Assembly (NCBI GenBank): GCA_049644265.1
Contig: JBARRO010000048.1
Location: 2,886 to 66,885, forward strand
DNA from: Bacteroidota bacterium
GTDB taxonomy: Bacteria > Bacteroidota > Ignavibacteria > UBA10030
DNA length: 64,000 nucleotides
Direction of reading: 5' to 3'
Shown here piece after piece: positions 2,876 to 62,649 of this stretch. Numbering within the stretch: the first letter of the stretch is position 1; each line of letters begins with the position of its first letter. The notes below the pieces were generated by a model, which saw only the letters and a program-made list of their open reading frames with translations, was not told the DNA's origin and searched no databases. A program made the position numbers and the translations under genes.

Positions 2876-3535
2876 TTATGAGGAGCTTTTCCGGAGTGCG
2901 CCAACAGCGCCGCTTACGTCCGACTGATGAAAAATTGATGTGCCAGCCACCAGGACGCTTGCGCCGGCAGCGACGACCTCCCGGGCCGTAGTCAGATCAA
3001 TCCCACCGTCCACCTCAATTTCAATTTGTTTTCCGGACCGTTCAACCATCGCCCGTGTATCCCGAAGTTTCTTGAGAGATCCACGAATGAATTTCTGCCC
3101 TCCGAATCCCGGATTGACGGACATGATCAGGATCAGGTCCACATCCGGAAGCACTTCTTCAAGGGTAGCCACCGGTGTCGAAGGGTTCAACGCAACGCCG
3201 GCTTTCGCGCCAAGCTCCTTGATGCGGGCGACGGTTCTGTTCAGGTGCACGCAAGCCTCCTGGTGTACCGTGATAATATCGGCTCCCGCCGACCGGAATT
3301 CCTCGAGATATCGGTCGGGGTTTTCGATCATCAAGTGAGTGTCGAGCGGTTTGGCTGTAATCTTGCGGATGGACTTGATGACCGGCGGGCCGAAGGTGAT
3401 GTTGGGGACAAAATGGCCATCCATGATATCCAGATGGAGCCAGTCCGCGCCACCGTTTTCGGCGAGCTTGATCTGTTGCTGGAGATTCGAAAAATCAGAA
3501 GCGAGGAGCGATGGGGCAATCTTGAGGTTGGGCAT
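2876..3535 (-). CDS. rpe: Ribulose-phosphate 3-epimerase
   Basis: 219 aa. Shows PSLLASDF...LHLDIMDGHFVPNITFGP...VNPGFGGQKF...EVDGGI motifs. Confidence 0.9.
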   Translation of the reverse strand: MPNLKIAPSLLASDFSNLQQQIKLAENGGADWLHLDIMDGHFVPNITFGPPVIKSIRKITAKPLDTHLMIENPDRYLEEFRSAGADIITVHQEACVHLNRTVARIKELGAKAGVALNPSTPVATLEEVLPDVDLILIMSVNPGFGGQKFIRGSLKKLRDTRAMVERSGKQIEIEVDGGIDLTTAREVVAAGASVLVAGTSIFHQSDVSGAVGALRKSSS

Positions 3536-5448: not shown

Positions 5449-6942
5449 TTGCCGAATGTTCTTCTGACACACTCGTATTTCCTGAGGTTTGATCCAAAGG
5501 AGTACCGGGCCATGATGCCCTATCCTCCGCTGGGCACCCTCTATGCCGCCTCCTACCTCAGACAGCATGGAATTTCGGTTGCCCTCCACGATGTCATGCT
5601 TGCGGCAACTGAGGAAGAGATTGTGCCCGCAATCGCGGCTGCACAACCGTCCGTCGTGGCAATCTATGACGATGGATTCAACTACCTTTCGAAAATGTGC
5701 CTGACCCGGATGCGGCAGGCCGCATTCTCCATGACACAAATGGCTAAGGAGCGCGGGTGCACCGTGGTCGTCTTCAGCTCTGACGCCACAGACCATCTTG
5801 AGGAGTACTTCCGGCACGGTGCGGATTACGTGATCTGCGGAGAGGCTGAGGTCACCCTCGCCGAGCTGGTTCAATTTCTGACGGGGTCGTCTTCCCAAAC
5901 CCCGGAGATGATCAACGGACTCGCCTTTGTCAGGAAGGGCAACATCATAAAGACTGGACAGCGGAAAGTGCTCCAGGACCTCGATCAGTTGCCTTTCCCG
6001 GCATGGGACCTCGTCGATCTTCATCGTTATCGGTCAGCCTGGAAGAAACATCACGGATATTTTTCACTGAACATGGTGACAACCCGTGGGTGTCCCTTCC
6101 ACTGTAATTGGTGTGCGAAACCTCTGTATGGCCAGGTGTACCACGCGCGAAGCCCTGAGAATGTCGTTGCCGAAATGAAATACCTCAAGGAGTTTGCTCA
6201 GCCCGACCATATCTGGTTTGCGGATGACATTTTTGGACTTAAACCCGGTTGGGTGGAAAAATTCGCTTACCACGTGCAGAATGAGGACGCGAAAATCCCG
6301 TTCAAATGTCTGGCTCGAGTCGACTTGCTCCTTGAGAGGAACACGCTCCAGCAGCTCAGGGAAGCAGGTTGCGAAACAGTTTGGGTTGGTGCAGAATCGG
6401 GGTCCCAGAAAGTCCTCGACGCCATGGAAAAGGGAACCACGGTGGAACAGATTTACAGAGCCACATCCCTCCTTCGCCGAAACGGCATAAGGACCGGTTT
6501 TTTTCTCCAGTTTGGTTATCCAGGAGAAGATCGGGACGACATTCTGAAGACCATTGGAATGGTCAAGGATTGCATGCCGGACGAGATAGGAATTTCTGTT
6601 TCCTATCCCCTCCCGGGAACAAAGTTCTACGAACGCGTAAAGAATCAGCTGGCAGGAAAACAAAATTGGGCCGTGAGCCAGGATCTTGATCTCATGTTCG
6701 CCGGAGAGTTCTCACCCGATTTCTATCGAATGCTGCACCGGGTAGTTCACAAACAGTTCAAAATATGGCGCGGCCTCAGAGCCCTTAAAGCATTGTTTGT
6801 GCACCCCGGAGATCGTGTGAGGAACAAGATCCGATCCATCGCTTCCATGGTCTATTACGGTCTAACATTGCCCATCGATCGTATTCGCCTTCTTGCATTG
6901 GAAAAGGCGCCTCATGCCAGGATCAACGGCTATGCAGACTGA
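5449..6942 (+). CDS. Cobalamin-binding-domain radical SAM protein (class B)
   Basis: 497 aa. N-terminal Rossmann-like B12-binding region followed by a CPFHCNWC radical-SAM cysteine triad (CxxxCxxC). Confidence 0.75.
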   Translation: MPNVLLTHSYFLRFDPKEYRAMMPYPPLGTLYAASYLRQHGISVALHDVMLAATEEEIVPAIAAAQPSVVAIYDDGFNYLSKMCLTRMRQAAFSMTQMAKERGCTVVVFSSDATDHLEEYFRHGADYVICGEAEVTLAELVQFLTGSSSQTPEMINGLAFVRKGNIIKTGQRKVLQDLDQLPFPAWDLVDLHRYRSAWKKHHGYFSLNMVTTRGCPFHCNWCAKPLYGQVYHARSPENVVAEMKYLKEFAQPDHIWFADDIFGLKPGWVEKFAYHVQNEDAKIPFKCLARVDLLLERNTLQQLREAGCETVWVGAESGSQKVLDAMEKGTTVEQIYRATSLLRRNGIRTGFFLQFGYPGEDRDDILKTIGMVKDCMPDEIGISVSYPLPGTKFYERVKNQLAGKQNWAVSQDLDLMFAGEFSPDFYRMLHRVVHKQFKIWRGLRALKALFVHPGDRVRNKIRSIASMVYYGLTLPIDRIRLLALEKAPHARINGYAD

Positions 6943-30396: not shown

Positions 30397-32154
30397 TTGA
30401 ACCTACAGGTCATTGTTGCTACTGTCATTAATGGGTGCCTTGCACACGGCTCGTCAAAATGCTATATTGACACGGTTCGAGGAGCCACGTATCACTTTTC
30501 GGAAACCTTCCCCATGACCTGGATCGACTACAAGGACCTCAACATCACCGATGGAGCATTTAGTCGGTTATTCCTCGACTATATCGGCGATTACCAAAAG
30601 GTTCAGAAATTCTACGGCGGCAACTTCCGGGATGAGAGCGCCTGGCGCTCCGTGCTGGAAAAAGTCTCAAATCGTGCGATGGATCGCGGGCCGATCGTCC
30701 AGATCCTCTCCAACCAGAACCGCAATTTCCAGTGCGGCATCAAGACTTTGGCGAATATCGACCTCCTGTTGAACGACAACACCGTTGCCGTCGTCACGGG
30801 ACAACAGGTCGGCCTCTTTACGGGTCCCCTCTATACCATCTACAAAACCCTGACGGCGATCAAACTCGCGGAGCAGATCAATGCAAAGTACCAGGACTAT
30901 CACGCTGTGCCGGTGTTCTGGCTGGAGGGCGAGGATCACGACTACGAAGAAGTGACCAGGATTAATTTGATTAATGGATCGAACGATCTGGTTCATATCG
31001 AATATCCTCTTGAAGCGAAGAGAGAAAAGAAGAACGTCGGGGCGGTCGGGAAAATTGAATTTACGGACTCGATCAACGACCTTTTCGGAGCGATCGATCA
31101 GACGCTCATCCAGACGGAGTTCAAGCCGAAGGTTTTGGACCTCTTCAAAACAGCGTATCAGAAGGGAATGACCTTCAACAAAGCCTTTGTGCATTTGATG
31201 AATGTTCTGGTTGAAGACTCGGGATTAATCTTTTTCGACCCGAACGATCCCGATGCCAAGAAACTCGTAGCTCCCATTTTCCAACGGGAGATCACGGATA
31301 CGCCGAAGATCGGACAGCTCGTGATCGACCAAAGTGTAGAGCTCGAAAACATTTACCATGCACAGGTGAAGCCCCGCTCGATCAACCTTTTCCTTTTTCA
31401 TGGAGGCGGACGGTATCCCATCGAGCCCCACCCAGACGGCTACTCACTAAAAGGAACCCGCCAGCATATCACGAAGGAAGAGATGAGCGGATTTCTTAAG
31501 AATTCGCCCGAGCTGTTCAGTCCGAATGTTGTGCTCAGACCGATATGTCAGGACTGGCTCCTCCCCACCGCCGCCTACGTAGCAGGACCCTCGGAAGTCG
31601 CTTATTTTGCGCAATTCCGGCCGTTGTACGAAGAATTCAACATACCCGAGCCAATCATTTATCCGCGGGCAAGTGTGACAATACTTGAAGAAAAGGTGGA
31701 GAAAGTGTTGACCCGGTTTGCATTGCAGGTCACACAGTTTTTTGAGGATGTGGAGTTTCTGAAGCAGAAGATCGCGGTGCAGATTTCGGATTTCAAAGTC
31801 GATGAACTCTTCGCCAGCACCAACGGCGCCATCGAAGAATCTTTGAACAGTTTGCGAAGCGGGATGCAGACCATCGATCCAACCCTTATGGGAGCGCTCG
31901 ACAACACACTCGGAAAGATCAAATCCCAGATCGATGTGTTGAAAGAGAAGACCCTTGCTGCGCAGAAGCGTCAGCACGAAGTCTACCTGCGTCAAATCGA
32001 CAAGGCAGCAATTTTCCTGTTTCCGAACTCAAACTTCCAGGAGCGCGAGCTGAACGTGCTGTATTTCTTGAATAAGTATGGATTGGAATTTGTGCGATGG
32101 CTGAATAATGAGATAGAGATTGATAAGTTTAAGCATCAGGTGGTGAAATTGTAG
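30397..32154 (+). CDS. bshC: Bacillithiol biosynthesis cysteine-adding enzyme BshC
   Basis: VVTGQQVGLFTGPLYTIYKTLTAIKLAEQ...VPVFWLEGEDHDYEEV closely matches the B. subtilis BshC/YllA signature as recalled. True start probably MTWIDYKDL (~30514), preceded by a TTGACA-N17-TATCAC promoter-like element. Confidence 0.85.
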   Translation: MNLQVIVATVINGCLAHGSSKCYIDTVRGATYHFSETFPMTWIDYKDLNITDGAFSRLFLDYIGDYQKVQKFYGGNFRDESAWRSVLEKVSNRAMDRGPIVQILSNQNRNFQCGIKTLANIDLLLNDNTVAVVTGQQVGLFTGPLYTIYKTLTAIKLAEQINAKYQDYHAVPVFWLEGEDHDYEEVTRINLINGSNDLVHIEYPLEAKREKKNVGAVGKIEFTDSINDLFGAIDQTLIQTEFKPKVLDLFKTAYQKGMTFNKAFVHLMNVLVEDSGLIFFDPNDPDAKKLVAPIFQREITDTPKIGQLVIDQSVELENIYHAQVKPRSINLFLFHGGGRYPIEPHPDGYSLKGTRQHITKEEMSGFLKNSPELFSPNVVLRPICQDWLLPTAAYVAGPSEVAYFAQFRPLYEEFNIPEPIIYPRASVTILEEKVEKVLTRFALQVTQFFEDVEFLKQKIAVQISDFKVDELFASTNGAIEESLNSLRSGMQTIDPTLMGALDNTLGKIKSQIDVLKEKTLAAQKRQHEVYLRQIDKAAIFLFPNSNFQERELNVLYFLNKYGLEFVRWLNNEIEIDKFKHQVVKL

Positions 32155-32367
32155 GTTGTCGATTGTAGATTGTCGATTGTAGATTGTAGATCGAGATGGA
32201 ACAGTTGAAAGTTGTAAGTTGAAAGTTAAGAGTTCCGAGTTGTGAGTTTAGAGTTTCCAGTTTTGCATGTTTCACTATTCACGATTTACGATTCACTATC
32301 TACGGTTTACTTTTCACCTTTCACTTTTCGCTTCTCTAGCTCCTTCACCTGCCCTAAGATCTCGCAT
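32155..32367 (+). repeat. Array of 30 in-phase degenerate heptanucleotide repeats (intercistronic bshC to ICMT)
   Basis: From 32155, unbroken 7-nt phasing: gttgtcg attgtag x4 ... gttgaaa gttgtaa gttgaaa gttaaga gttccga gttgtga gtttaga gtttcca gttttgc ... actattc acgattt acgattc actatct acggttt acttttc acctttc acttttc ... ending 1 nt before the ATG at 32366. First half lacks C, second half is G-poor. Confidence 0.85.
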
Positions 32368-38996: not shown

Positions 38997-41594
38997 TTAT
39001 TCAAGCTTGCGTTTTGTCTCAACCGTATGATAGGCCTCGATAACGTCGCCCACCTTCAAGTCGTTGTAGTTTTCGAGCCCAAGGCCGCATTCGAAGCCCT
39101 GCTCCACTTCGCGGACATCGTCCTTGAACCGTTTGAGCGAAGCCAGCGTACCGTCGAACACGACAACGCCGTCTCGAACCAGTCGGACGCGATTGTTCCT
39201 CGTGATTTTGCCATCCCTGACGTAACAACCCGCGATGGTACCAACCTTTGAAATTTTGAATATGTCCCGCACGTCCACCGTCGCCAGCACCTCCTCGGAC
39301 ACGGTCGGCGCAAGCATACCTTCCAGGGCGTTCTTCACTTCGTTGATTGCGTCGTAGATGATGCTGTACAACCGGATGTCGATGTCCTCGAGCTGAGCAA
39401 GTTGCCGCGCCTTGAGGTTCGGTCGCACATGGAATCCAATGATGACTGCCTGCGACGCGACAGCAAGGAGAACGTCGGACTCTGAAATTCCTCCGACGCC
39501 CTTGTGAATAACCTGCACCTTCACTTCATTCGTCGACAGCTTCATGAGTGAATCGGAAAGTGCTTCGGCGGACCCGTCGACGTCTGCTTTGACGATGACC
39601 GGGAGGTCGCGTACCTGGCCTTCTTTGATCTGCTTTGAGATGTCGTCGAGCGTGACACGCCGGCTCTGGCGGAAATCCTGCTCACGTTTGAGTTGCTGCC
39701 GTCGGAAGGATATATCCCGCGCCTCGCGCTCGTCTTTGAGGACGACGAATGCATCGCCGGCCTGAGGGATTCCGTCAAACCCAATCACCTGCACCGGCTG
39801 GGACGGGTGGGCGACTTCAATACGCTGGCCCCGTTCGTCGAACATGGCTCGTACTCTTCCGCTCCAGACTCCCGTGACAAACGAATCGCCGATTCTCAGG
39901 GTTCCTTTCTGCACAAGAACTGTTGCCGTAATACCCTTGCCTTTATCCAGTTCTGCTTCGACCACCACGCCACGAGCTTCCCTGTTCGGATTGGCTTTCA
40001 GGTCCAACACTTCCGCTTCAAGGAGGATCTTCTCAAGCAACTGGTCCACATTCTTTCCGGTTTTTGCCGAGAGCGACACGACCTGAGATTTGCCGCCGTA
40101 CTCTTCGACGAGAAGTCCTTTTTCGGCCAGCTGCTGCTTAATGCGGTCCGGGTTTGCTTCGGGCTTGTCAATCTTGTTGATTGCCACGACAATTGGAACG
40201 CCGGCGGCCTGTGCGTGACTGATCGCCTCGACCGTTTGCGGCATGACACTGTCATCTGCAGCAACAACCAGGACGACGATGTCCGTCACCTGTGCGCCGC
40301 GGGCACGCATGGCAGTAAACGCCTCGTGGCCGGGAGTATCGAGAAACGTGATGTGCTTGCTGCCGTCCAGCGTGACCTCGTACGCGCCGATGTGCTGCGT
40401 GATGCCGCCGGATTCGCCGGCAACCACGTTGGCACTGCGAATATAGTCGAGGAGAGAGGTTTTCCCGTGGTCGACATGTCCCATGATGGTGACAACCGGG
40501 GGACGCGTGACCAGCGAGGTTTCGTCGTCGGGAATGTCCTGGAGGACATCAGCCGTGAACTCGTGTTCAAAATCGACCTGGAATCCGAATTCGTCGGCGA
40601 CGAGCGTAATCGTGTCTTTGTCAAGGCGCTGGTTGATGGAAACCATGACGCCGAGGCCCATGATCTTCTGGATGACTTCCGCCACAGAAACACGCATGAG
40701 GTTGGCGAGCTCGCCGACCGTGACAAACTCCGTGACTTTGACTCTCGTCCGATCGCGCTCGATCTGATCGAGGATCTTCTGCTGCTCCTCTTCGCGTTTC
40801 TCTTTCTTCCGCTTGCGAATTGCCGCGCGAGAGGTGACTGCTTCGTCACTGGATTCCGCCAGCGTTTCGCGGATCGCCTTTGCGACCTCCACCTCATTCA
40901 CCTCAGCCCGACGGACCTTTTTCCGCTTGCGCCCCTTCGCCTCTTCCTCATCCTCTGTCTTCGCGGGAGCAACTTTGACCTTTTTGGTGTCTTCCCGAAG
41001 CTTCTTTTTCTTCTTTTTCTTCTTCTTCTCTTCTTCCGATTCCGTTGCTGCGGCCGTCGGGGAGGTCAGCTCCATCTTCCCCTTGATCGTCAATCCCCTC
41101 TGCGCGCGCGCGACTGCGGCCTCCAACGGCGATTGCGGCCCACGACGTGCCGCCGGTTTTTCTTCCTTTTTGATTTCGACCGGTTTCGGCTCGGAAGCCG
41201 GAACCGCGGGCGCTTCCGTCGGCGGAGCCACAGGTAGCTGTGCCGCCTCAACGGGAGCAGCCTCTACCGTAGGCGCGGCAACCGGAATTTCTTCGACCGG
41301 TTCGGCCTCTTCGACCTTTACGGGTTCCTCTTCTTTGACCGCTTTCTTTTCGACCTTTTCGGGAGTTTCCTTCTTGCGGGTCGAACGGAATTCCTGAAGC
41401 TTCTTGTGGTGACGTTCCGCGACGTCCTTTTCCTTTTTGAAGTGACTGTTGATGGCGTGGACCATATCATCGGTCACCGCGCTCATGTGGTTCTTCACTT
41501 CAAACCCCTTTTTCTTCAGGAACTCGAGAATCGTTTCGCTCGAGAGGTTGAGTTCCTTCGCAAGGTTATAGATTTTGACTTTCTTTTCGGTCAT
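38997..41594 (-). CDS. infB: Translation initiation factor IF-2
   Basis: 865 aa. Charged low-complexity N-terminus with a poly-Lys tract, GTPase domain ([12 protein letters not shown] ... DTPGHEAF ... NKID) and C-terminal beta-barrels. The + ORF 39693..41237 is an antisense shadow. Confidence 0.95.
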
Positions 41595-44384: not shown

Positions 44385-44971
44385 AGTAATCCCCTGGTTG
44401 GTATAATCATGAGAAAGTTTTTTAAGATCTTCTTTCCATGTTCGGTTGCTATGGATTCGGGATGAAACTGCACCCCGAATGTGGGAAACTCCCGATGTCG
44501 CACCGCCATAATCGTGCCGTCCTCAGTCCACGCAGTGACTTCAAGCTCTTTCGGCAACGACTCTTTTTCGACAATCAACGAATGGTACCGCGCGGCGGTA
44601 AAGGGAGAGGGAATGTCCCGAAAGAGGCCGGATTCACCATGGAAGATCGGCGATGTTTTTCCGTGATAGATCTTCGAGGCCCGCACAATTTTACCGCCGA
44701 ACGCCTCTCCGACCGATTGATGGCCAAGACATACTCCGAGAATCGGGACTCCCTTGTGGAGCCTCTTCACAACTTCCACAGAAACTCCTGCCTCGTTCGG
44801 AGTGCACGGCCCCGGCGAAATCACGATTCCATCCGGCTTCATCTCGATGATCTCATCGACTGTCATGGCGTCATTGCGGGCGACGGTCTGCTCCACTCCC
44901 AGCTCACCCAGATACTGGACGAGGTTGTACGTGAAGGAATCATAGTTGTCGATGACGAGGAGCATGGTCAA
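44381..44971 (-). CDS. trpG: Glutamine amidotransferase component of anthranilate / aminodeoxychorismate synthase
   Basis: Class I GATase triad (GVCLGHQ ... HPES). Real start probably the ATG at 44965 ([15 protein letters not shown]), not the listed TTG. Confidence 0.8.
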
Positions 44972-45099
44972 TTGGTCAATTCAACAAATGAACAATGAGC
45001 AATGTGAGAAGAACAGTAAGCAGTTGTCAGTAGACAGTACCAGGAAAAACACGAGGAGCGAGGAATCTGTAACTGACAACTGGAAACTCGAAACTTCTC
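44966..45099 (-). repeat. Array of ~17 in-phase degenerate heptanucleotide repeats (intercistronic trpE to trpG)
   Basis: Plus-strand phasing atgaaca atgagca atgtgag aagaaca gtaagca gttgtca gtagaca gtaccag ... atctgta actgaca actggaa actcgaa acttctc. The transcribed (minus) strand is G-depleted upstream of the trpG start. Confidence 0.8.
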
Positions 45100-57249: not shown

Positions 57250-58748
57250 CACTACGGACATTCACGACGACTGCATTTCTGGCGTTCCTGCTTGTTGTTG
57301 ACACGCCGCCAAGTTCCGCGCAATACAACAGCTTCAACCAGCGCGACGACAAGTATCGCCTGCTCGGGCTCAAGCGCGCAAAGGAATACTATGAGCTGGC
57401 GAAGAAAGAGTTCGACCGTCAAAAAAATCTCTTCGACAAGGGCCTTGTTTCGCAAGTTGAGATTGACCGTTCCAAGAACGCACTCGCCGACGCCGAAGTG
57501 AACTACCAACAATCCCTGCTCGCCGTGCTCTTCGAACAACAGTATGTATCCATTGACAATGCCGTGAAATACCAGGCATCCAACGGTTCCAAGCGTGTCA
57601 GACTTACGCTGAAAAATGCATCGGGAGGCGGCGAGGAATTTCAAAAACTCCTCGGCATCGAGGACAAACTGTTTCGTTCTCTTCAGCCGGACCTGATTCA
57701 GAATGTCTACGTTTCCCTCTACAACAGCGAGGGCGCAATCATCTCCCAGCCGTATGAGGCAAAGATCGAACAACTGAAGTCCGGCGAGCCACGAAAGATC
57801 GACTTTACGCTCCTGCAGGACCTGGACGCCGTGACGGTCAATATTATTTATGGGAATGGAACAAGCCGGACTCTGAAAATCCTCCTGCAGAAAGACAATA
57901 CCGTCAACAGGGTGCTGCTGCAGTCGCAACAGTTCTCCCAGGAGGCCGAGCTGGGCACGTCTGCAACGTTTGACCTCACGCTTGAGCTCTTCAGCGGCGT
58001 GGACAACACTTTTAGTCTCGAAGTGGTCAACCTCCCCCGCCAGATCAATCGATTCTTCAAGGACATTACAACGGGAGCCCGTCTTTCGCAGATCAAATTC
58101 ACGGAGAGTTCCAGTTCGAAGAAAGCGGGGTTGGAAGTTTCGTTGCCGGATCGGCCGACAGATCAGGTGGCCATGGACAAACCCATCGCGTTTTTTGCGC
58201 TGGTGGTCCCCACCGACCGGGGCGACGAGTTCCGTTCAATCCAGGAAAAGAGCTGGACCGAGGATGAGATCAAAAAATTGCATGTGGGATATGTCCGTCT
58301 CGAGCTCATGCCCCGTGGCCAGGGAAGGCTCCTTGTTCGGGCACCCCAACTTTACTACGCTATCAAGCCTGACGGCAGTGTCGAGATGACGGTGGACGCC
58401 GTGAACGAGGGAACGCGGAGGCTGGATAACGTCAGAATGGATGTGGACGTGCCCCTCAATTGGACCAAACGCATCAGTCCCGACGTGATTCCGGCACTCG
58501 ACATCAATCAGGAGAAACGCATCACGGTGACCGCTGTTCCTCCTCCGGGAATCGCCGTGGGCCGGTATGAGCTGCGTCTCCGCACAAGCGGCCTTTCGGA
58601 CAACAAGCCCGTCAACGCGGAAGACAAAACGGTGACTGTCGAGATCCAGGCAGAAGCAAGCGTGATTGGGACGATCCTTCTTGTGTTGACGATCCTTGGG
58701 CTTGTTTCGGGCCTGGTCGTGTTCGGGGTAAAGCTCTCAAAGCGGTAA
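57246..58748 (+). CDS. Secreted beta-rich protein with N-terminal coiled coil and C-terminal TM anchor (ABC-module accessory, hypothetical)
   Basis: Signal peptide. Adaptor-like coiled coil (LVSQVEIDRSKNALADAEVNYQQS). About 380 aa of beta-rich sequence with Ig-like/NEW3-like character. Hydrophobic C-terminal helix. Confidence 0.3.
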   Translation: MTLRTFTTTAFLAFLLVVDTPPSSAQYNSFNQRDDKYRLLGLKRAKEYYELAKKEFDRQKNLFDKGLVSQVEIDRSKNALADAEVNYQQSLLAVLFEQQYVSIDNAVKYQASNGSKRVRLTLKNASGGGEEFQKLLGIEDKLFRSLQPDLIQNVYVSLYNSEGAIISQPYEAKIEQLKSGEPRKIDFTLLQDLDAVTVNIIYGNGTSRTLKILLQKDNTVNRVLLQSQQFSQEAELGTSATFDLTLELFSGVDNTFSLEVVNLPRQINRFFKDITTGARLSQIKFTESSSSKKAGLEVSLPDRPTDQVAMDKPIAFFALVVPTDRGDEFRSIQEKSWTEDEIKKLHVGYVRLELMPRGQGRLLVRAPQLYYAIKPDGSVEMTVDAVNEGTRRLDNVRMDVDVPLNWTKRISPDVIPALDINQEKRITVTAVPPPGIAVGRYELRLRTSGLSDNKPVNAEDKTVTVEIQAEASVIGTILLVLTILGLVSGLVVFGVKLSKR

Positions 58749-58880
58749 TAACACTTGGTTCTTGGATACAGGACGTTGGGTGTTGGAAATTGGAAAGATG
58801 AACCATTCAAAGTCCAATGACCAATATTCAATAGTCAATATCCAATTCCCAATAATCAACGTGACCTAAAGGAGCCATTT
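58749..58880 (+). repeat. Array of 18 in-phase degenerate heptanucleotide repeats (intercistronic, upstream of the ABC ATPase)
   Basis: cacttgg ttcttgg atacagg acgttgg gtgttgg aaattgg aaagatg aaccatt caaagtc caatgac caatatt caatagt caatatc caattcc caataat caacgtg acctaaa ggagcca then ttt ATG. The distal half is NNNNTGG, the proximal half CAATNNN, G-poor. Confidence 0.85.
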
Positions 58881-59615
58881 ATGCAGCCAACTCCCATGTT
58901 TGAAGCCGTGAATCTCACCAAGAGGTATGAGGACGGCGTGCTTGCACTCGATCGTGTTTCGTTCCGTGTCGATCGCGGAGAGATCTACGCGATGCTTGGC
59001 GCGAACGGAGCCGGAAAGACGACCGCCATCAACATCTTCCTGAACCTGATCGAGCCGACCGAAGGAGAAGCACGTATCGATGGTGTCGCGACACATAAAG
59101 AGCCGCTGGTGGCAAAAAAGAATGTCGCATACGTTTCAGAAAACGTCATGCTGTATCCGAGCTTTACCGCGATTCAGAACCTCGATTATTTCGCAAGACT
59201 CGGTGGAAAAACCCAGTATACCCGGGAGGATTACCGAAAGGTCCTGCGGCGCGTCGGTTTGCAGGAGGAGGCGCACACGAAGAGACTCAAGGGATTCTCC
59301 AAGGGAATGAGGCAAAAATGCGGAATTGCCATAGCGATCCTTAAAGATGCTCCGGCCATTCTCCTCGATGAACCCACATCGGGGCTTGACCCTCAGGCGG
59401 CTTACGAATTCCAACGCCTCCTTGAGTCCCTCCGCGACGAAGGCAAATCGATTATCATGTCCACCCATGACATCTTTCGCGCCAAAGAAGTCGCGGATAC
59501 TGTCGGTATCATGAGCAAAGGAAGACTCGTCATGCAGAAATCTTCGGCCGAGCTGCAAGGAAAGGACCTTGAACAGGTATATATGAAACATATGGCGGGA
59601 CATGGAGAGGAGTAG
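58881..59615 (+). CDS. ABC transporter ATP-binding protein
   Basis: Walker A GANGAGKTT, signature FSKGMRQK, Walker B ILLDEPTSGLD, H-loop. Confidence 0.9.
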   Translation: MQPTPMFEAVNLTKRYEDGVLALDRVSFRVDRGEIYAMLGANGAGKTTAINIFLNLIEPTEGEARIDGVATHKEPLVAKKNVAYVSENVMLYPSFTAIQNLDYFARLGGKTQYTREDYRKVLRRVGLQEEAHTKRLKGFSKGMRQKCGIAIAILKDAPAILLDEPTSGLDPQAAYEFQRLLESLRDEGKSIIMSTHDIFRAKEVADTVGIMSKGRLVMQKSSAELQGKDLEQVYMKHMAGHGEE

Positions 59616-59744
59616 AGGAGTAATGGAGTAGATGAGTAGTGGAGTAGGTGCGTTTATGAGTCGATGAGTCTGTGAGTCTATAAGTCAATGAGTAACAGGG
59701 CAAACTGCTAACTGGAAACTGAAAACTGACAACTGGCAACTCCT
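59616..59744 (+). repeat. Array of 18 in-phase degenerate heptanucleotide repeats (intercistronic ATPase to permease)
   Basis: ggagtaa tggagta gatgagt agtggag taggtgc gtttatg agtcgat gagtctg tgagtct ataagtc aatgagt aacaggg caaactg ctaactg gaaactg aaaactg acaactg gcaactc then ct ATG. Shares the aactgacaactgg(a/c)aact motif with the trpE-trpG array. Confidence 0.85.
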
Positions 59745-61157
59745 ATGATCAAACTCATCATTGAAAAAGAGCTCCGGGAGATTATCGGATCGACGAAGTT
59801 TGCGGTGACGTTTGGGGTTTCGTCTATTCTCATTATTCTCTCGTTTTATGTCGGTGGCAGGAATTATCAGATCGGGACGGAACAGTACGAATCGTCGAAA
59901 CGCGAGGATTTCAGGAAGATGGAAGGAATCACTGACTGGAATGAAGTCCGCGACCACCGGGTCTTCCTTCCCCCTCAGCCTGTCGCGTCTCTCGTGATGG
60001 GGGTCTCAAACGACATCGGCCGGACCATGGAAATACACGGACGAGGCGAGCTGACTGCCGAAGACAGCAGGTATGGCGATGACCCGATTTATGCGGTCTT
60101 CCGGTTTCTGGATCTCGATTTCATCTTTCAAATTGTCCTTTCCCTCTTTGCCATTCTGTTTGCGTACGACGCCATAAATGGGGAAAAGGAGCGCGGGACG
60201 CTTCGACTCACATTTGCCAATCCGGTTCCGCGCGGCTCGTACATCCTTGGCAAAATGCTCGGATCGCTCTTCGGCCTTGCCCTTCCCCTTCTCATTCCCA
60301 TTCTGATCGGGTCGACGGTCCTGCTTCTCATGAAGATACCCCTTCAGACGCCGGATTGGGTGCGTCTGGCTCTCGTCGTGGCCTGTGGATTTCTGTACTT
60401 TGGCGCGTTTTTGGCGCTCTCCCTGTTCATTTCTTCCCTAACGGAGAGATCCTCACATTCCTTTCTCCTCCTGCTCATTATCTGGATTCTCTCAGTCATG
60501 GTTGTCCCCAGAATCGCTGTGTTACTCGCAGGAAGGGCCATCGACGTCCCGAGTGTCGATGAGCTCGGTTCGAAGAAATCCCGATACGCCGCTTCGCTCT
60601 GGCAGGAGGATCGGAAGAAAATGGCGGATTTCAAGTCGACTCCCGGCGTCCCTGCCAATGAAGTGCTCAAGGGTTTCCAAAAGTTCATGTCGCAGATGGG
60701 CGATGAAAGGGAAAAGAAGATTCAGGAATTCGGCAGACAACTGAACGAGAACAGGACGAACAAGCAACGTCTTCAGGAGGACCTGGCGTTTGGACTCTCC
60801 ATGGTCTCCCCTTCCGCAGTCTTTTCCCTGGCATCAACCACGATTTCGGGTACCGGCCTGCGGCTCGCGAACAACTTTCAGCACGAGGCCGAAACGTACC
60901 AAACGTCGTACGGAGAGTTCATGAAGGAGAAAACCGGAATGAATCCCGGCGGCGGCATGGTGTTCCGCATTTCCACGGACAACGATACAAAGAAAGACCC
61001 TGTGAACCTGAATGAGCTTCCTGTATTCGAGTTCCGCAGGGAACCCCTTCGGGCTGTCCTGGGGTCCATCGCGTTGGACTTTGGAATCCTGGCTCTCTTC
61101 AATATTCTGTTCTTCGCCGGGGCGTTTATCTCGTTCCTTCGCTACGATGTCCGTTGA
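59745..61157 (+). CDS. ABC-2 family transporter permease (paralog 1)
   Basis: 470 aa. N-terminal TM, large extracytoplasmic/charged insert, ABC-2 core (DDPIYAVFRFLDLDF ... C-terminal FLRYDVR). Confidence 0.65.
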   Translation: MIKLIIEKELREIIGSTKFAVTFGVSSILIILSFYVGGRNYQIGTEQYESSKREDFRKMEGITDWNEVRDHRVFLPPQPVASLVMGVSNDIGRTMEIHGRGELTAEDSRYGDDPIYAVFRFLDLDFIFQIVLSLFAILFAYDAINGEKERGTLRLTFANPVPRGSYILGKMLGSLFGLALPLLIPILIGSTVLLLMKIPLQTPDWVRLALVVACGFLYFGAFLALSLFISSLTERSSHSFLLLLIIWILSVMVVPRIAVLLAGRAIDVPSVDELGSKKSRYAASLWQEDRKKMADFKSTPGVPANEVLKGFQKFMSQMGDEREKKIQEFGRQLNENRTNKQRLQEDLAFGLSMVSPSAVFSLASTTISGTGLRLANNFQHEAETYQTSYGEFMKEKTGMNPGGGMVFRISTDNDTKKDPVNLNELPVFEFRREPLRAVLGSIALDFGILALFNILFFAGAFISFLRYDVR

Positions 61158-62649
61158 CCAATCACCAGAGATCGGGAGAATAACGATGTTTCGAACCATG
61201 GTTGTCAAAGAACTTAAATCCATCCTGCTCAGCCCGAAATTCACCGGAACGTTTGCTGTCTGCTCGCTCCTGATGCTTCTGACGGTGTACGTGGGTATCC
61301 GTGAGTACCAGTCAACCCTCAGAGAATACGCAGCCGCGAACAACCTTGTGCAGCAGGAAATGCGGGAGGCTCGCCAGTGGATGCAGGTCAACAATCGCAT
61401 TTATCGCGAACCGAACCCGATGCAGATTTTCGTCGCGGGCGTCCAGAACGACGTCGGACGGTTCTCCAGCATTAGCGCCTGGCAGCCCGTGAAGCTTGTG
61501 CACAGCTCCTACACCGACGACCCGATCTTTGCGGTCTTCCGGTTTGTCGATTTCTCCTTTATTGTTCAGGTTGTATTGACGTTGTTTGCCGTCCTCTTCA
61601 CGTTCGATGCCATCAACGGCGAGCGCGAGAATGGAACGCTTCAGTTGATCTTCTCCCACGCCGTTCCGCGGGCGCAGTTTGTGCTGGCAAAACTCGTGGG
61701 CTCCTGGCTGGGTCTGGTGATTCCTCTGACCATCCCGGTTTTGTTGAGTCTCCTGATGCTTCCGTTATTTGGCATCCCCATGACGACGGATGTTTGGATG
61801 AGGATGGGCGCGGTGATGGCCGCATCTGTACTGCTCTTCACATTCTTTGTGGCGTTCGGCGTCCTGGTATCCGCCCTGACACGTCATTCAAACGTCTCGT
61901 TCCTCATCTGCCTGGTCAGCTGGGTGGCGCTTGTTCTGATCGTTCCACGGCTTGGCGTCATGGCTGCAGGGCAGATCATCAAAACCCCGACCGTTGCGGA
62001 GATTGAAAGTCAACAGGATGGATTCGCAAAAAACAGGTGGAATGAAGAGATGAAGTTGATGGGGGAACGGTGGAGAACCCGTAACGAGAGCATGAATGGA
62101 TTAAACGAGCAGGAGCGGAAGGCAAAGCGGGATGAAATGGAATGGACCTGGGCGGAGGAGGACGACAACGCAAGGAAGAAAGTCCAACAGGATGTCGATG
62201 AAAATTCCCGGAAGCTGAGAGAGGAATTCCGAAACCGAACGATGGAGCAACAACACCTCGCGTTCCTCCTCTCGCGCTTTTCTCCGGTCTCGGCGTTTCA
62301 GCTCGCGATCATGAACCTCGGCGGTACCGACACGGGATTGAAGTCACGCTACGAGGATGCGCTCAATGCGTACAGAACGGCGTTCAATCAGTACAAGGAC
62401 CAGAAGCGGAAGGAATCCGGGAGCATCGGAGGGTTGCGCATCAGTGTTGACTCACAGAGCGGTGTCAAAATCGATGTGGGGAGAGAAATCGCCCTGGACT
62501 TGAGCGGGATTCCGCAATTTCAACTGAACAGAGGGACATTTGTCGAAGCGTTTGCACCAACGATCGTCGATTTCGGTCTGCTCGGATTCTTTTCCATTGC
62601 AGCGCTTGTTGGCACGTTCCTGGCCTTTCTCCGCTATGACGTCCGATAG
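61012..62649 (+). CDS. ABC-2 family transporter permease (paralog 2)
   Basis: Likely start MFRTMVVKEL (ATG 61196). Same architecture and motifs as paralog 1 (DDPIFAVFRFVDFSF ... FLRYDVR). Tandem duplicate. Confidence 0.65.
   Translation: MSFLYSSSAGNPFGLSWGPSRWTLESWLSSIFCSSPGRLSRSFATMSVDQSPEIGRITMFRTMVVKELKSILLSPKFTGTFAVCSLLMLLTVYVGIREYQSTLREYAAANNLVQQEMREARQWMQVNNRIYREPNPMQIFVAGVQNDVGRFSSISAWQPVKLVHSSYTDDPIFAVFRFVDFSFIVQVVLTLFAVLFTFDAINGERENGTLQLIFSHAVPRAQFVLAKLVGSWLGLVIPLTIPVLLSLLMLPLFGIPMTTDVWMRMGAVMAASVLLFTFFVAFGVLVSALTRHSNVSFLICLVSWVALVLIVPRLGVMAAGQIIKTPTVAEIESQQDGFAKNRWNEEMKLMGERWRTRNESMNGLNEQERKAKRDEMEWTWAEEDDNARKKVQQDVDENSRKLREEFRNRTMEQQHLAFLLSRFSPVSAFQLAIMNLGGTDTGLKSRYEDALNAYRTAFNQYKDQKRKESGSIGGLRISVDSQSGVKIDVGREIALDLSGIPQFQLNRGTFVEAFAPTIVDFGLLGFFSIAALVGTFLAFLRYDVR

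Follow-up and report, generated by a model that had tools for sequence, protein, structure and literature searches.

The spacer of 129 nt that separates an ABC transporter ATPase gene from an ABC-2 family permease gene (positions 59616-59744, plus strand) is an instance of a known, mechanistically unexplained class of repeats and not a new kind of element. The gap, with the ATPase upstream and the permease downstream, is strongly periodic and non-random. The arrays described here are real: a heptamer family with the core AACT is specific to this genome and recurs at three junctions, and in relatives the corresponding operon junctions hold arrays that differ in core and in copy number. Our preferred reading, which is drawn from the sequence and which we hold tentatively, is that the spacer is a composite of two arrays of this class, 11 GAGT octamers and 6 AACTG heptamers, that slippage may have built into a non-folding mRNA linker with an unstructured AACUG leader. 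Throughout the text, the window is the whole stretch of DNA that was analysed, 64,000 nt long. The features of the junction are the following.

58881-59615, plus strand: ABC transporter ATPase gene, from the list of open reading frames (Pfam ABC_tran, E = 8e-29), with the stop codon TAG at 59613-59615
59606-59701, plus strand: octamer array, 11 good units of NNNTGAGT and one decayed unit (autocorrelation, TRF)
59616-59621, plus strand: AGGAGT directly past the stop codon, complementary to ACTCCT at 59739-59744 (fold)
59702-59743, plus strand: heptamer array, 6 units of NAACTGN, a degenerate TAACTGA type (lag-7 autocorrelation 0.76)
59739-59744, plus strand: ACTCCT abutting the ATG at 59745, partner of 59616-59621 (fold)
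59745-61157, plus strand: ABC-2 family permease gene (Pfam ABC2_membrane_2, E = 2e-28)

Two arrays of different period fill the spacer

The initial annotation had described the spacer as eighteen in-phase heptads. This does not hold for its left two thirds, where the period is 8: between 59606 and 59701 the autocorrelation is 0.70 at lag 8 vs 0.15 at lag 7, TRF returns periods of 8 and 16, and only 59702-59743 is heptameric. The octamer array begins 10 nt inside the ATPase reading frame, in its last codons, and is built on the core GAGT, with 36 % G and 8 % C; in RNA form its 11 units read (NNNUGAGU)11. On the other side, the six NAACTG-type units that had been placed next to the permease ATG are indeed there, in the order AAACTGC, TAACTGG, AAACTGA, AAACTGA, CAACTGG and CAACTCC, followed by a T and the ATG. 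The heptamer array thus ends at 59743, 1 nt before the ATG at 59745. The N-terminus that starts from this codon (MIKLII...) is conserved in relatives and identical in one of them, L123. The composition changes along the spacer, its 5' half having 39 % G and 6 % C and its last 43 nt having 26 % C and 16 % G, and the G-rich first part contains stop codons in all three frames (4, 3 and 7).

No Shine-Dalgarno motif of the GGAG type was found between the end of the heptamer array and the permease ATG. This absence carries little weight because the use of such motifs is low genome-wide: a Shine-Dalgarno-like motif precedes only 14 of 58 starts, vs a background of 16 %. For the same reason, the idea that arrays replace a missing Shine-Dalgarno sequence is not discriminating and was dropped.

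Folding predictions yielded no stable structure for this spacer. Alone it folds worse than shuffled sequence (z = +0.86 to +0.95), and adding 45 nt from the beginning of the permease gene raises z to +1.62, a fold that 192 of 200 shuffles equal or surpass; a hairpin or REP-like reading of 59616-59744 was rejected on these grounds. The only helix common to the minimum-free-energy and centroid folds is the one between AGGAGT and ACTCCT, a complementarity that may be due to chance. Translational coupling through a helix that joins stop to start was considered and set aside: it would consist of this single 6-bp AGGAGU:ACUCCU pairing, and it is not general, because the hairpins of two related loci (L012 and L063) end 45-50 nt before the start. 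We also considered pairing between GATGAGT octamer units (59663-59672) and ACTCATC in codons 4-6 of the permease (59750-59759). The inverted repeat exists, and several units could pair with the beginning of the coding region, but the pairing appears in the centroid fold only and has no energetic support. When the region from -45 to +15 was folded for the four starts preceded by arrays, we obtained -4.8, -2.9, -4.9 and -7.7 kcal/mol vs -9.3 +/- 4.2 for 31 other starts. Neither an internal promoter nor an intrinsic terminator was found in the spacer, and no promoter-like site was seen on the gene strand of 58600-59900. A search of the whole window against Rfam families gave 0 matches at gathering score.

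Arrays of the AACT family and of other families in the window

A window-wide scan for periods of 4 to 12 returned 10 segments vs 0.05 in shuffles. The pattern AACT-N3-AACT-N3-AACT has 13 overlapping matches in the window, vs 0.00 expected from 100 shuffles, all of them confined to 32203-32262 (minus strand), 45071-45095 and 59703-59741. The pattern GAGT-N4-GAGT-N4-GAGT has 4 matches vs 0.02 expected, all inside the ATPase-permease spacer. On a simple gene map of the window, a signal of period 7 or 8 is present in four gaps only, each between co-directional genes: after bshC, between trpE and trpG (44972-45099, minus strand), upstream of the ATPase (58749-58880) and at 59616-59744. The longer gaps of the window contain no arrays. 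An enrichment of arrays between co-directional genes was rejected, as 18 of 25 array gaps vs 385 of 649 gaps overall, on crude calls of open reading frames, are not clearly different. The arrays of the three other gaps are the following.

32148-32189, plus strand: ATTGTAG/ATTGTCG x6 after bshC, beginning inside the bshC stop region (TRF period 7/14, 93 % matches)
32203-32265, plus strand: AGTTNNN x9 after bshC, the reverse complement of the AACT family (unit list, pattern search)
32271-32333, plus strand: TTCACNN x9 after bshC (unit list)
45010-45044, minus strand: NNNCAGT x4-5 as read on the plus strand, trpE-trpG spacer, inverse partner of 45068-45095
45068-45095, minus strand: NNNAACT x4 as read on the plus strand, trpE-trpG spacer (unit list, pattern search)
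58760-58866, plus strand: TTGGNNN x6 (58760-58801), then the inverse CCAANNN x6-7 (58818-58866), upstream of the ATPase (unit list, inverted repeat search)

These results bear on the proposal that the arrays are members of one repeat family dispersed over intercistronic junctions. The proposal stands for the AACT(G) heptamers, which recur at three junctions, and fails for the octamers, which are unrelated to them and have a GAGT core. Nor can one family account for all arrays, since the window also holds ATTGTAG, TTCACNN, TTGGNNN/CCAANNN, NNNCAGT and TGGTCAAT. Within the AACT family, we confirmed both the quoted match between our spacer and 45071-45095 and the reverse-complement relation of the heptamers to the AGTT run at 32203-32262, and a pattern search bears out that the AACT heptamers lie in either orientation at their three intercistronic junctions. 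Aligned over three units, the three AACT arrays agree at 17-18 of 21 positions, and their similarity beyond the core is a weak excess only (P ~0.03). Furthermore, the AACT family is genome-specific, as had been suspected, because it is nearly absent from the relatives (one non-redundant match in 1.69 Mb of related DNA) and yet present at three junctions of the window.

Two of the other gaps contain arrays that pair with each other. In the trpE-trpG spacer the AACT array is read in the mRNA as AGUUNNN x4 just past the trpE stop codon, and it pairs with the second array (AGUU, then ACUG) into a hairpin with z = -3.5 to -3.7. The TTGG/CCAA spacer upstream of the ATPase is likewise an inverted array pair that forms a hairpin (RNA fold z = -2.5 to -2.7). 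At 44965-44980, two copies of TGGTCAAT adjoin the trpG start; on the coding strand they read ATTGACCAATTGACCATG and overlap the likely ATG. The heptamer TTGGTCA within TGGTCAAT is what we take to be the cyanobacterial STRR2 unit.

The arrays had also been said to lie always flush with start and stop codons. This is the case at 59616-59744 and most likely not after bshC, where the likely start codon at 32366 stands about 30 nt past the last array. The gap after bshC runs from 32155 to 32266 if the first ATG is used; with 32366 as the start of the PEMT/ICMT-like gene, it is about 211 nt long. The later start is suggested by the Pfam PEMT/ICMT match, which begins only at residue 60, and the TTCACNN array is probably the untranslated leader of the gene starting at this ATG. 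The longest reading frame after bshC would turn the TTCACNN array (32267-32365) into a repeat of seven residues (FHYSRFT IHYLRFT FHLSLFA). Elsewhere in the window, a CTT run of about 12 copies at 41001-41036 lies inside an 865-aa reading frame (38997-41594, minus strand), in which it would encode a Lys/Glu-rich stretch.

Array cores are constrained and linkers vary

Comparison of the units within each array shows that mismatches are concentrated outside a short core. In the AGTTNNN array after bshC we counted 0 mismatches in 36 core cells vs 14 in 27 linker cells (P = 5e-7). In the NAACTGN array the AACT core has 0 mismatches in 24 cells vs 7 in 12 for the linkers (P = 9e-5), and in the octamers the mismatches per position are 5, 5, 4, 4, 1, 1, 0 and 0 (core vs linker, P = 7e-5). 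The arrays thus consist of a core of 4-5 nt and freely varying, nearly random linkers of 2-4 nt. Over 56 pooled arrays of the window and its relatives, some of which are not independent of each other, the concentration of mismatches by position is 1456 observed vs 1146 +/- 27. Our results show that the array cores are under constraint. Purely neutral slippage is therefore disfavoured, since neutral decay predicts no such pattern of invariant cores and free linkers.

Relatives keep arrays at the same junctions with other units

The closest relatives of the ATPase come from metagenome-assembled genomes labelled Bacteroidota, Ignavibacteria or Ignavibacteriales, the best at 81 % amino-acid identity. 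Over 146 related loci in which both genes could be placed, the spacer between ATPase and permease has a median length of 32 nt (interquartile range 11-80) and measures 10 nt or less in 35. A short spacer is hence the common state across relatives, and the 129-nt array spacer represents an expansion with respect to this median. Arrays with a period of 7 or 8 nt were found at about one sixth of the related loci, often at the same three places, namely upstream of the ATPase, in the ATPase-permease spacer and downstream of the first permease. On a tree of the ATPase, the array-bearing loci form one main block with scattered additional cases, and the nearest neighbours of the window are mostly without arrays.

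The units differ from one relative to the next. We found the cores TGGATTNN in L012, L014, L034 and L094, GTGGATN in L063 and L088, AGAGCAN in L058 and GGTGAAT in L003, together with GGGCGAR x29 in L108 and a palindromic ACGTTAC in L012 and L063. This last array occupies the junction that matches 61158-61185 of the window, where two paralogous ABC-2 permease genes lie only 28 nt apart, no array is present and GGGAGA, a Shine-Dalgarno motif, precedes the ATG at 61186. Within a genome, the same core tends to be used at different junctions, as is GTGTT in four arrays of L050. The 29 GGGCGAR units of L108 (6718-6921) lie directly past the ATPase stop codon and are very G-rich; by analogy with the Xanthomonas and Nostoc heptamers, this array may form a G-quadruplex. 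In L152 about 10 copies of a 14-nt unit, CGCTAATCACGAAT, which consists of a pair of related heptamers, lie at 3008-3154, and a short form of this repeat lies just upstream of the ATPase at 5929-5987. A 'perfect repeat' in L033 (10690-10789) was discarded: it is a scaffold gap, a run of N directly past the ATPase gene that gave a false score of perfect periodicity, and it may mark a point at which the assembly broke in a repeat array.

Copy number differs between relatives too. Comparison of L094:5759-5990 with L034:9847-9960 shows flanking DNA that is about 91 % identical, and the AATCCANN arm has about 21 units in the former vs 8 in the latter, which shows unit-wise expansion. The opposite arm of this array pair keeps 4 units in both. 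Higher-order periods of 14, 16, 21 and 24 nt were also found by TRF. L094 carries about 1 kb of extra DNA between its ATPase and permease genes.

Several relatives have a strong hairpin at the ATPase-permease junction (z = -7.7 in L012, -5.7 in L063 and -3.6 in L058). Among relatives that carry arrays here, L003 is the closest, and like the window it has a purine-rich direct array that does not fold (z = +2.0). Long near-perfect hairpins lie at operon junctions in L012:10724-10861, L063:10724-10834, L058:4356-4498 and L050:14053-14151. In these four loci the hairpin arms are a 7- or 8-nt tandem array followed by its reverse complement, an architecture of which we found no description for the Ignavibacteria/Bacteroidota-like lineage.

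Array-bearing spacers are G-rich after the stop and C-rich before the start

The change in composition along the spacer is found in its counterparts as well. Among 19 array-bearing spacers that flank the ATPase gene, the mean GC skew is +0.39 in the 5' 40 % of the spacer vs -0.16 in the 3' 40 %. Sixteen of the 19, which include orthologous arrays and are not independent, are G-rich and C-poor after the stop codon and C-rich and G-poor before the start codon (Wilcoxon P = 1.6e-4), and a strand-symmetric measure of this polarity gives 17 vs 3. By comparison, where these junctions hold spacers without arrays (53 cases, each 80 nt or longer), the GC skew is 0.00 (5') and 0.01 (3'). The spacer at 59616-59744 follows the same G-then-C order. 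This polarity is not trivial, because an inverted pair could put either arm first.

Comparison with known repeat systems

The closest likeness is to the TAACTGA intergenic direct repeats described in marine Beggiatoaceae, some Cyanobacteria and five Bacteroidetes (MacGregor 2015, PMC4679880). These occur in sets of at least two adjacent exact units, with 'split' sets allowing one or two related 7-mers in between; they mostly point toward the start codon, the largest class ending 1 nt upstream of it, and are found without a ribosome binding site (PMC4679880). No fold is predicted for them, and a role in translational control has been proposed (PMC4679880). The array at 59702-59743 resembles them in its head-to-tail heptamer period, its AACTG core and its copy number (2-6 per set there, six here). 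It is also intergenic, forward, free of predicted folding, has stop codons in the forward frames and ends 1 nt before a start codon that lacks a ribosome binding site. It differs in that its units are degenerate (NAACTGN) and fused to an unrelated octamer array, that the family is also found reversed after stop codons, and that the host belongs to an uncultured Ignavibacteria/Bacteroidota-like lineage. Indeed, exact TAACTGA occurs in the window only at 45070 and 55217 and never in tandem, which leaves the heptamers outside the strict definition. Genomes with TAACTGA repeats have many sets of them (PMC4679880); the 64-kb window holds three AACT arrays.

Heptameric intergenic simple sequence repeats are also known from Xanthomonas (GGGAATC) and Nostoc (GGGGAYT) (Rehm 2015, PMC4692102), and have been placed in the LSSR class of Mrazek 2007, as far as later work cites it (PMC4679880, PMC4692102). 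About 90 % of the heptameric repeats are intergenic, mostly between co-directional open reading frames and near the upstream one, and in related Xanthomonas they lie between the same genes with varying length and sequence (PMC4692102). Our arrays share with them the over-representation of 7-nt tandem units, the intergenic location and, in some cases, the pairing as inverted repeats. In contrast, the Xanthomonas and Nostoc units are near-perfect, G-rich and G-quadruplex-forming, whereas here a core of 4-5 nt is fixed and the linkers are free, and a single spacer combines periods of 7 and 8. As for LSSRs, tandem arrays of a 5-11 nt unit are longer here than expected by chance, according to the three counts from the window given above, and they are intergenic with variation of length and sequence at the same junction in relatives; perfect or near-perfect units were not found, only the 4-5 nt core being constant.

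Deletion of Nostoc heptamer repeats near start codons changes reporter output in both Nostoc and E. coli (10.1101/2022.06.06.494920), and the reported effects arise partly at promoters (10.1101/2022.06.06.494920). Calothrix heptanucleotides are mentioned as well (PMC4692102). Our arrays are like the STRR and Nostoc heptamers in being tandem, intergenic heptamers with several families per genome, some of which abut or overlap start codons, and unlike them in phylum and in unit. Mazel et al. are said to have described the cyanobacterial STRR heptanucleotide repeats in 1990.

Like REP and BIME elements, the arrays are intercistronic in operons, including ABC transporter operons, and the neighbouring and orthologous spacers form hairpins. 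The spacer at 59616-59744 differs from them in having no palindrome (z > 0), and the hairpin-forming copies differ in having arms made of 7-8 nt tandem arrays. REP-type elements are further marked by a cognate RAYT transposase and a conserved GTAG/CGTC tag at their ends. A stem-loop is thus found at 58749-58880 (z = -2.5) and at 44972-45099 (z = -3.7) and not at 59616-59744.

For Cyanobacteria, reports of heptamer-type intergenic repeats go back to 1990; Beggiatoaceae, Xanthomonas and a few Bacteroidetes were added later. In the literature we found no report of this class for the Ignavibacteria/Bacteroidota-like lineage. Our results show that this uncultured lineage, too, can have an AACTG-type repeat 1 nt ahead of a start codon, and they add three regularities: an invariant core of 4-5 nt with free linkers, persistence at junctions despite turnover of units, and G-then-C polarity. 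If these hold genome-wide, the search for a function would narrow to the RNA level, that is, to translation initiation, avoidance of Rho or mRNA processing.

Origin and possible role of the arrays

In the reading that we tentatively prefer, slipped-strand replication would build and resize arrays in steps of 7-8 nt, and such an expansion would have stretched to 129 nt an ATPase-permease junction that was once short and translationally coupled. Arrays that are retained could serve, within the polycistronic mRNA, as an untranslated linker that does not fold. The G-rich, C-poor octamer tract would bring stop codons in all frames and avoid self-pairing, and should offer Rho no C-rich loading site. 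The A/C-rich NAACUGN tract, in turn, may keep the region of the AUG, which lacks a Shine-Dalgarno sequence, single-stranded for initiation independent of such a sequence, as has been proposed for TAACTGA in Beggiatoaceae. In sister spacers, inverted array pairs that form hairpins might be another solution to the same problem. In favour of this reading are the non-random periodicity, the constraint on cores, the expansion and turnover of arrays among relatives, the lack of structure in the spacer and the weak folding at array-preceded starts, the polarity, and the parallels with the TAACTGA and Xanthomonas repeats. Against it, a start that lacks a Shine-Dalgarno sequence is nothing special in this genome. 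The AACT family is present in both orientations with respect to transcription, so a reader of AACUG in single-stranded RNA cannot explain all copies; and the arrays are dispensable, because most relatives manage with a spacer of 2-60 nt.

Slippage could also act alone. It is doubtful, although a serious candidate, that the arrays are a neutral by-product, that is, functionless slippage junk biased to units of about 7 nt and tolerated where it does no harm. This would suit the short median spacer (32 nt) and the lack of arrays in most relatives, the different units found between genomes at the same junction, the copy number that differs between 91 %-identical relatives and the higher-order repeat periods, and it agrees with Mrazek's slippage hypothesis in the form in which PMC4679880 and PMC4692102 relate it. 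Decay, however, should strike all positions of a unit equally, yet the cores are invariant and the linkers near-random. Moreover, one core of 4-5 nt is reused at three junctions of a single genome, and the G-then-C polarity is missing from array-free spacers.

The same architecture of core and variable linker would suit a binding platform for a nucleic-acid-binding protein whose oligomers would contact one core of 4-5 nt with each subunit, at intervals of 7-8 nt. This possibility, in essence the one raised by the initial annotation, we find unlikely. The candidates would be RNA binders (S1, Csp, CsrA-like, or a TRAP/HutP-like ring) or DNA binders of the ribbon-helix-helix type (omega, MetJ). 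Omega binds 7-bp heptads and MetJ binds 8-bp metboxes, and operators of ribbon-helix-helix proteins are direct or inverted runs of 7- or 8-bp units that overlap a promoter. The periods of our arrays equal those of the omega and MetJ operators, but the arrays lie inside an operon, with no promoter-like site nearby on the gene strand. Genome-specific cores common to several junctions (AACT in the window, GTGTT in L050, TGGATT in L012, L014, L034 and L094) would be expected of such a binder, the occurrence of AACT in both orientations would suit a reader of double-stranded DNA, and a binder has been postulated both by MacGregor 2015 (PMC4679880) and in the Nostoc preprint (10.1101/2022.06.06.494920). 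On the other hand, the 64 kb contain six or more different cores, so several binder specificities would be needed, and a strand-specific polarity in composition is unexpected for a reader of double-stranded DNA. A TRAP site consists of 9-11 (G/U)AG triplets 2-3 nt apart. Spacing of the TRAP/HutP-like kind was rejected here, as GAG every 8 nt gives 5-nt spacers, or adjacent GAG-TAG pairs, and AACT is found in both orientations.

Decidedly improbable in our view is a wider reading in which the spacers make up a lineage-wide, modular system of polarised repeats at operon junctions. A trans-acting factor would recognise the cores, unless they pair mutually in any register; the G-then-C polarity would shield the RNA from Rho and set downstream translation; and copy number would be an evolvable rheostat. 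If this were true, the same logic would explain the TAACTGA, STRR and Xanthomonas heptamers.

We consider it very unlikely that the arrays go back to insertions of a mobile or recombining element (REP/BIME- or MITE-like) that has dispersed to permissive intergenic sites, our spacer being a decayed copy that has lost one arm: genome-specific families at several loci, the many copies that are inverted array pairs with long hairpins (in L012, L063 and two spacers of the window), the slight similarity between the linkers of the three AACT arrays (P = 0.03) and the terminal complementarity of AGGAGT and ACTCCT would agree with it, but conserved termini, target duplications and a transposase were not seen, copies share a stretch of only 18-20 nt, and the spacer at 59616-59744 does not fold. 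In addition, different genomes hold different units at the same junctions, which fits turnover in situ better than repeated insertion.
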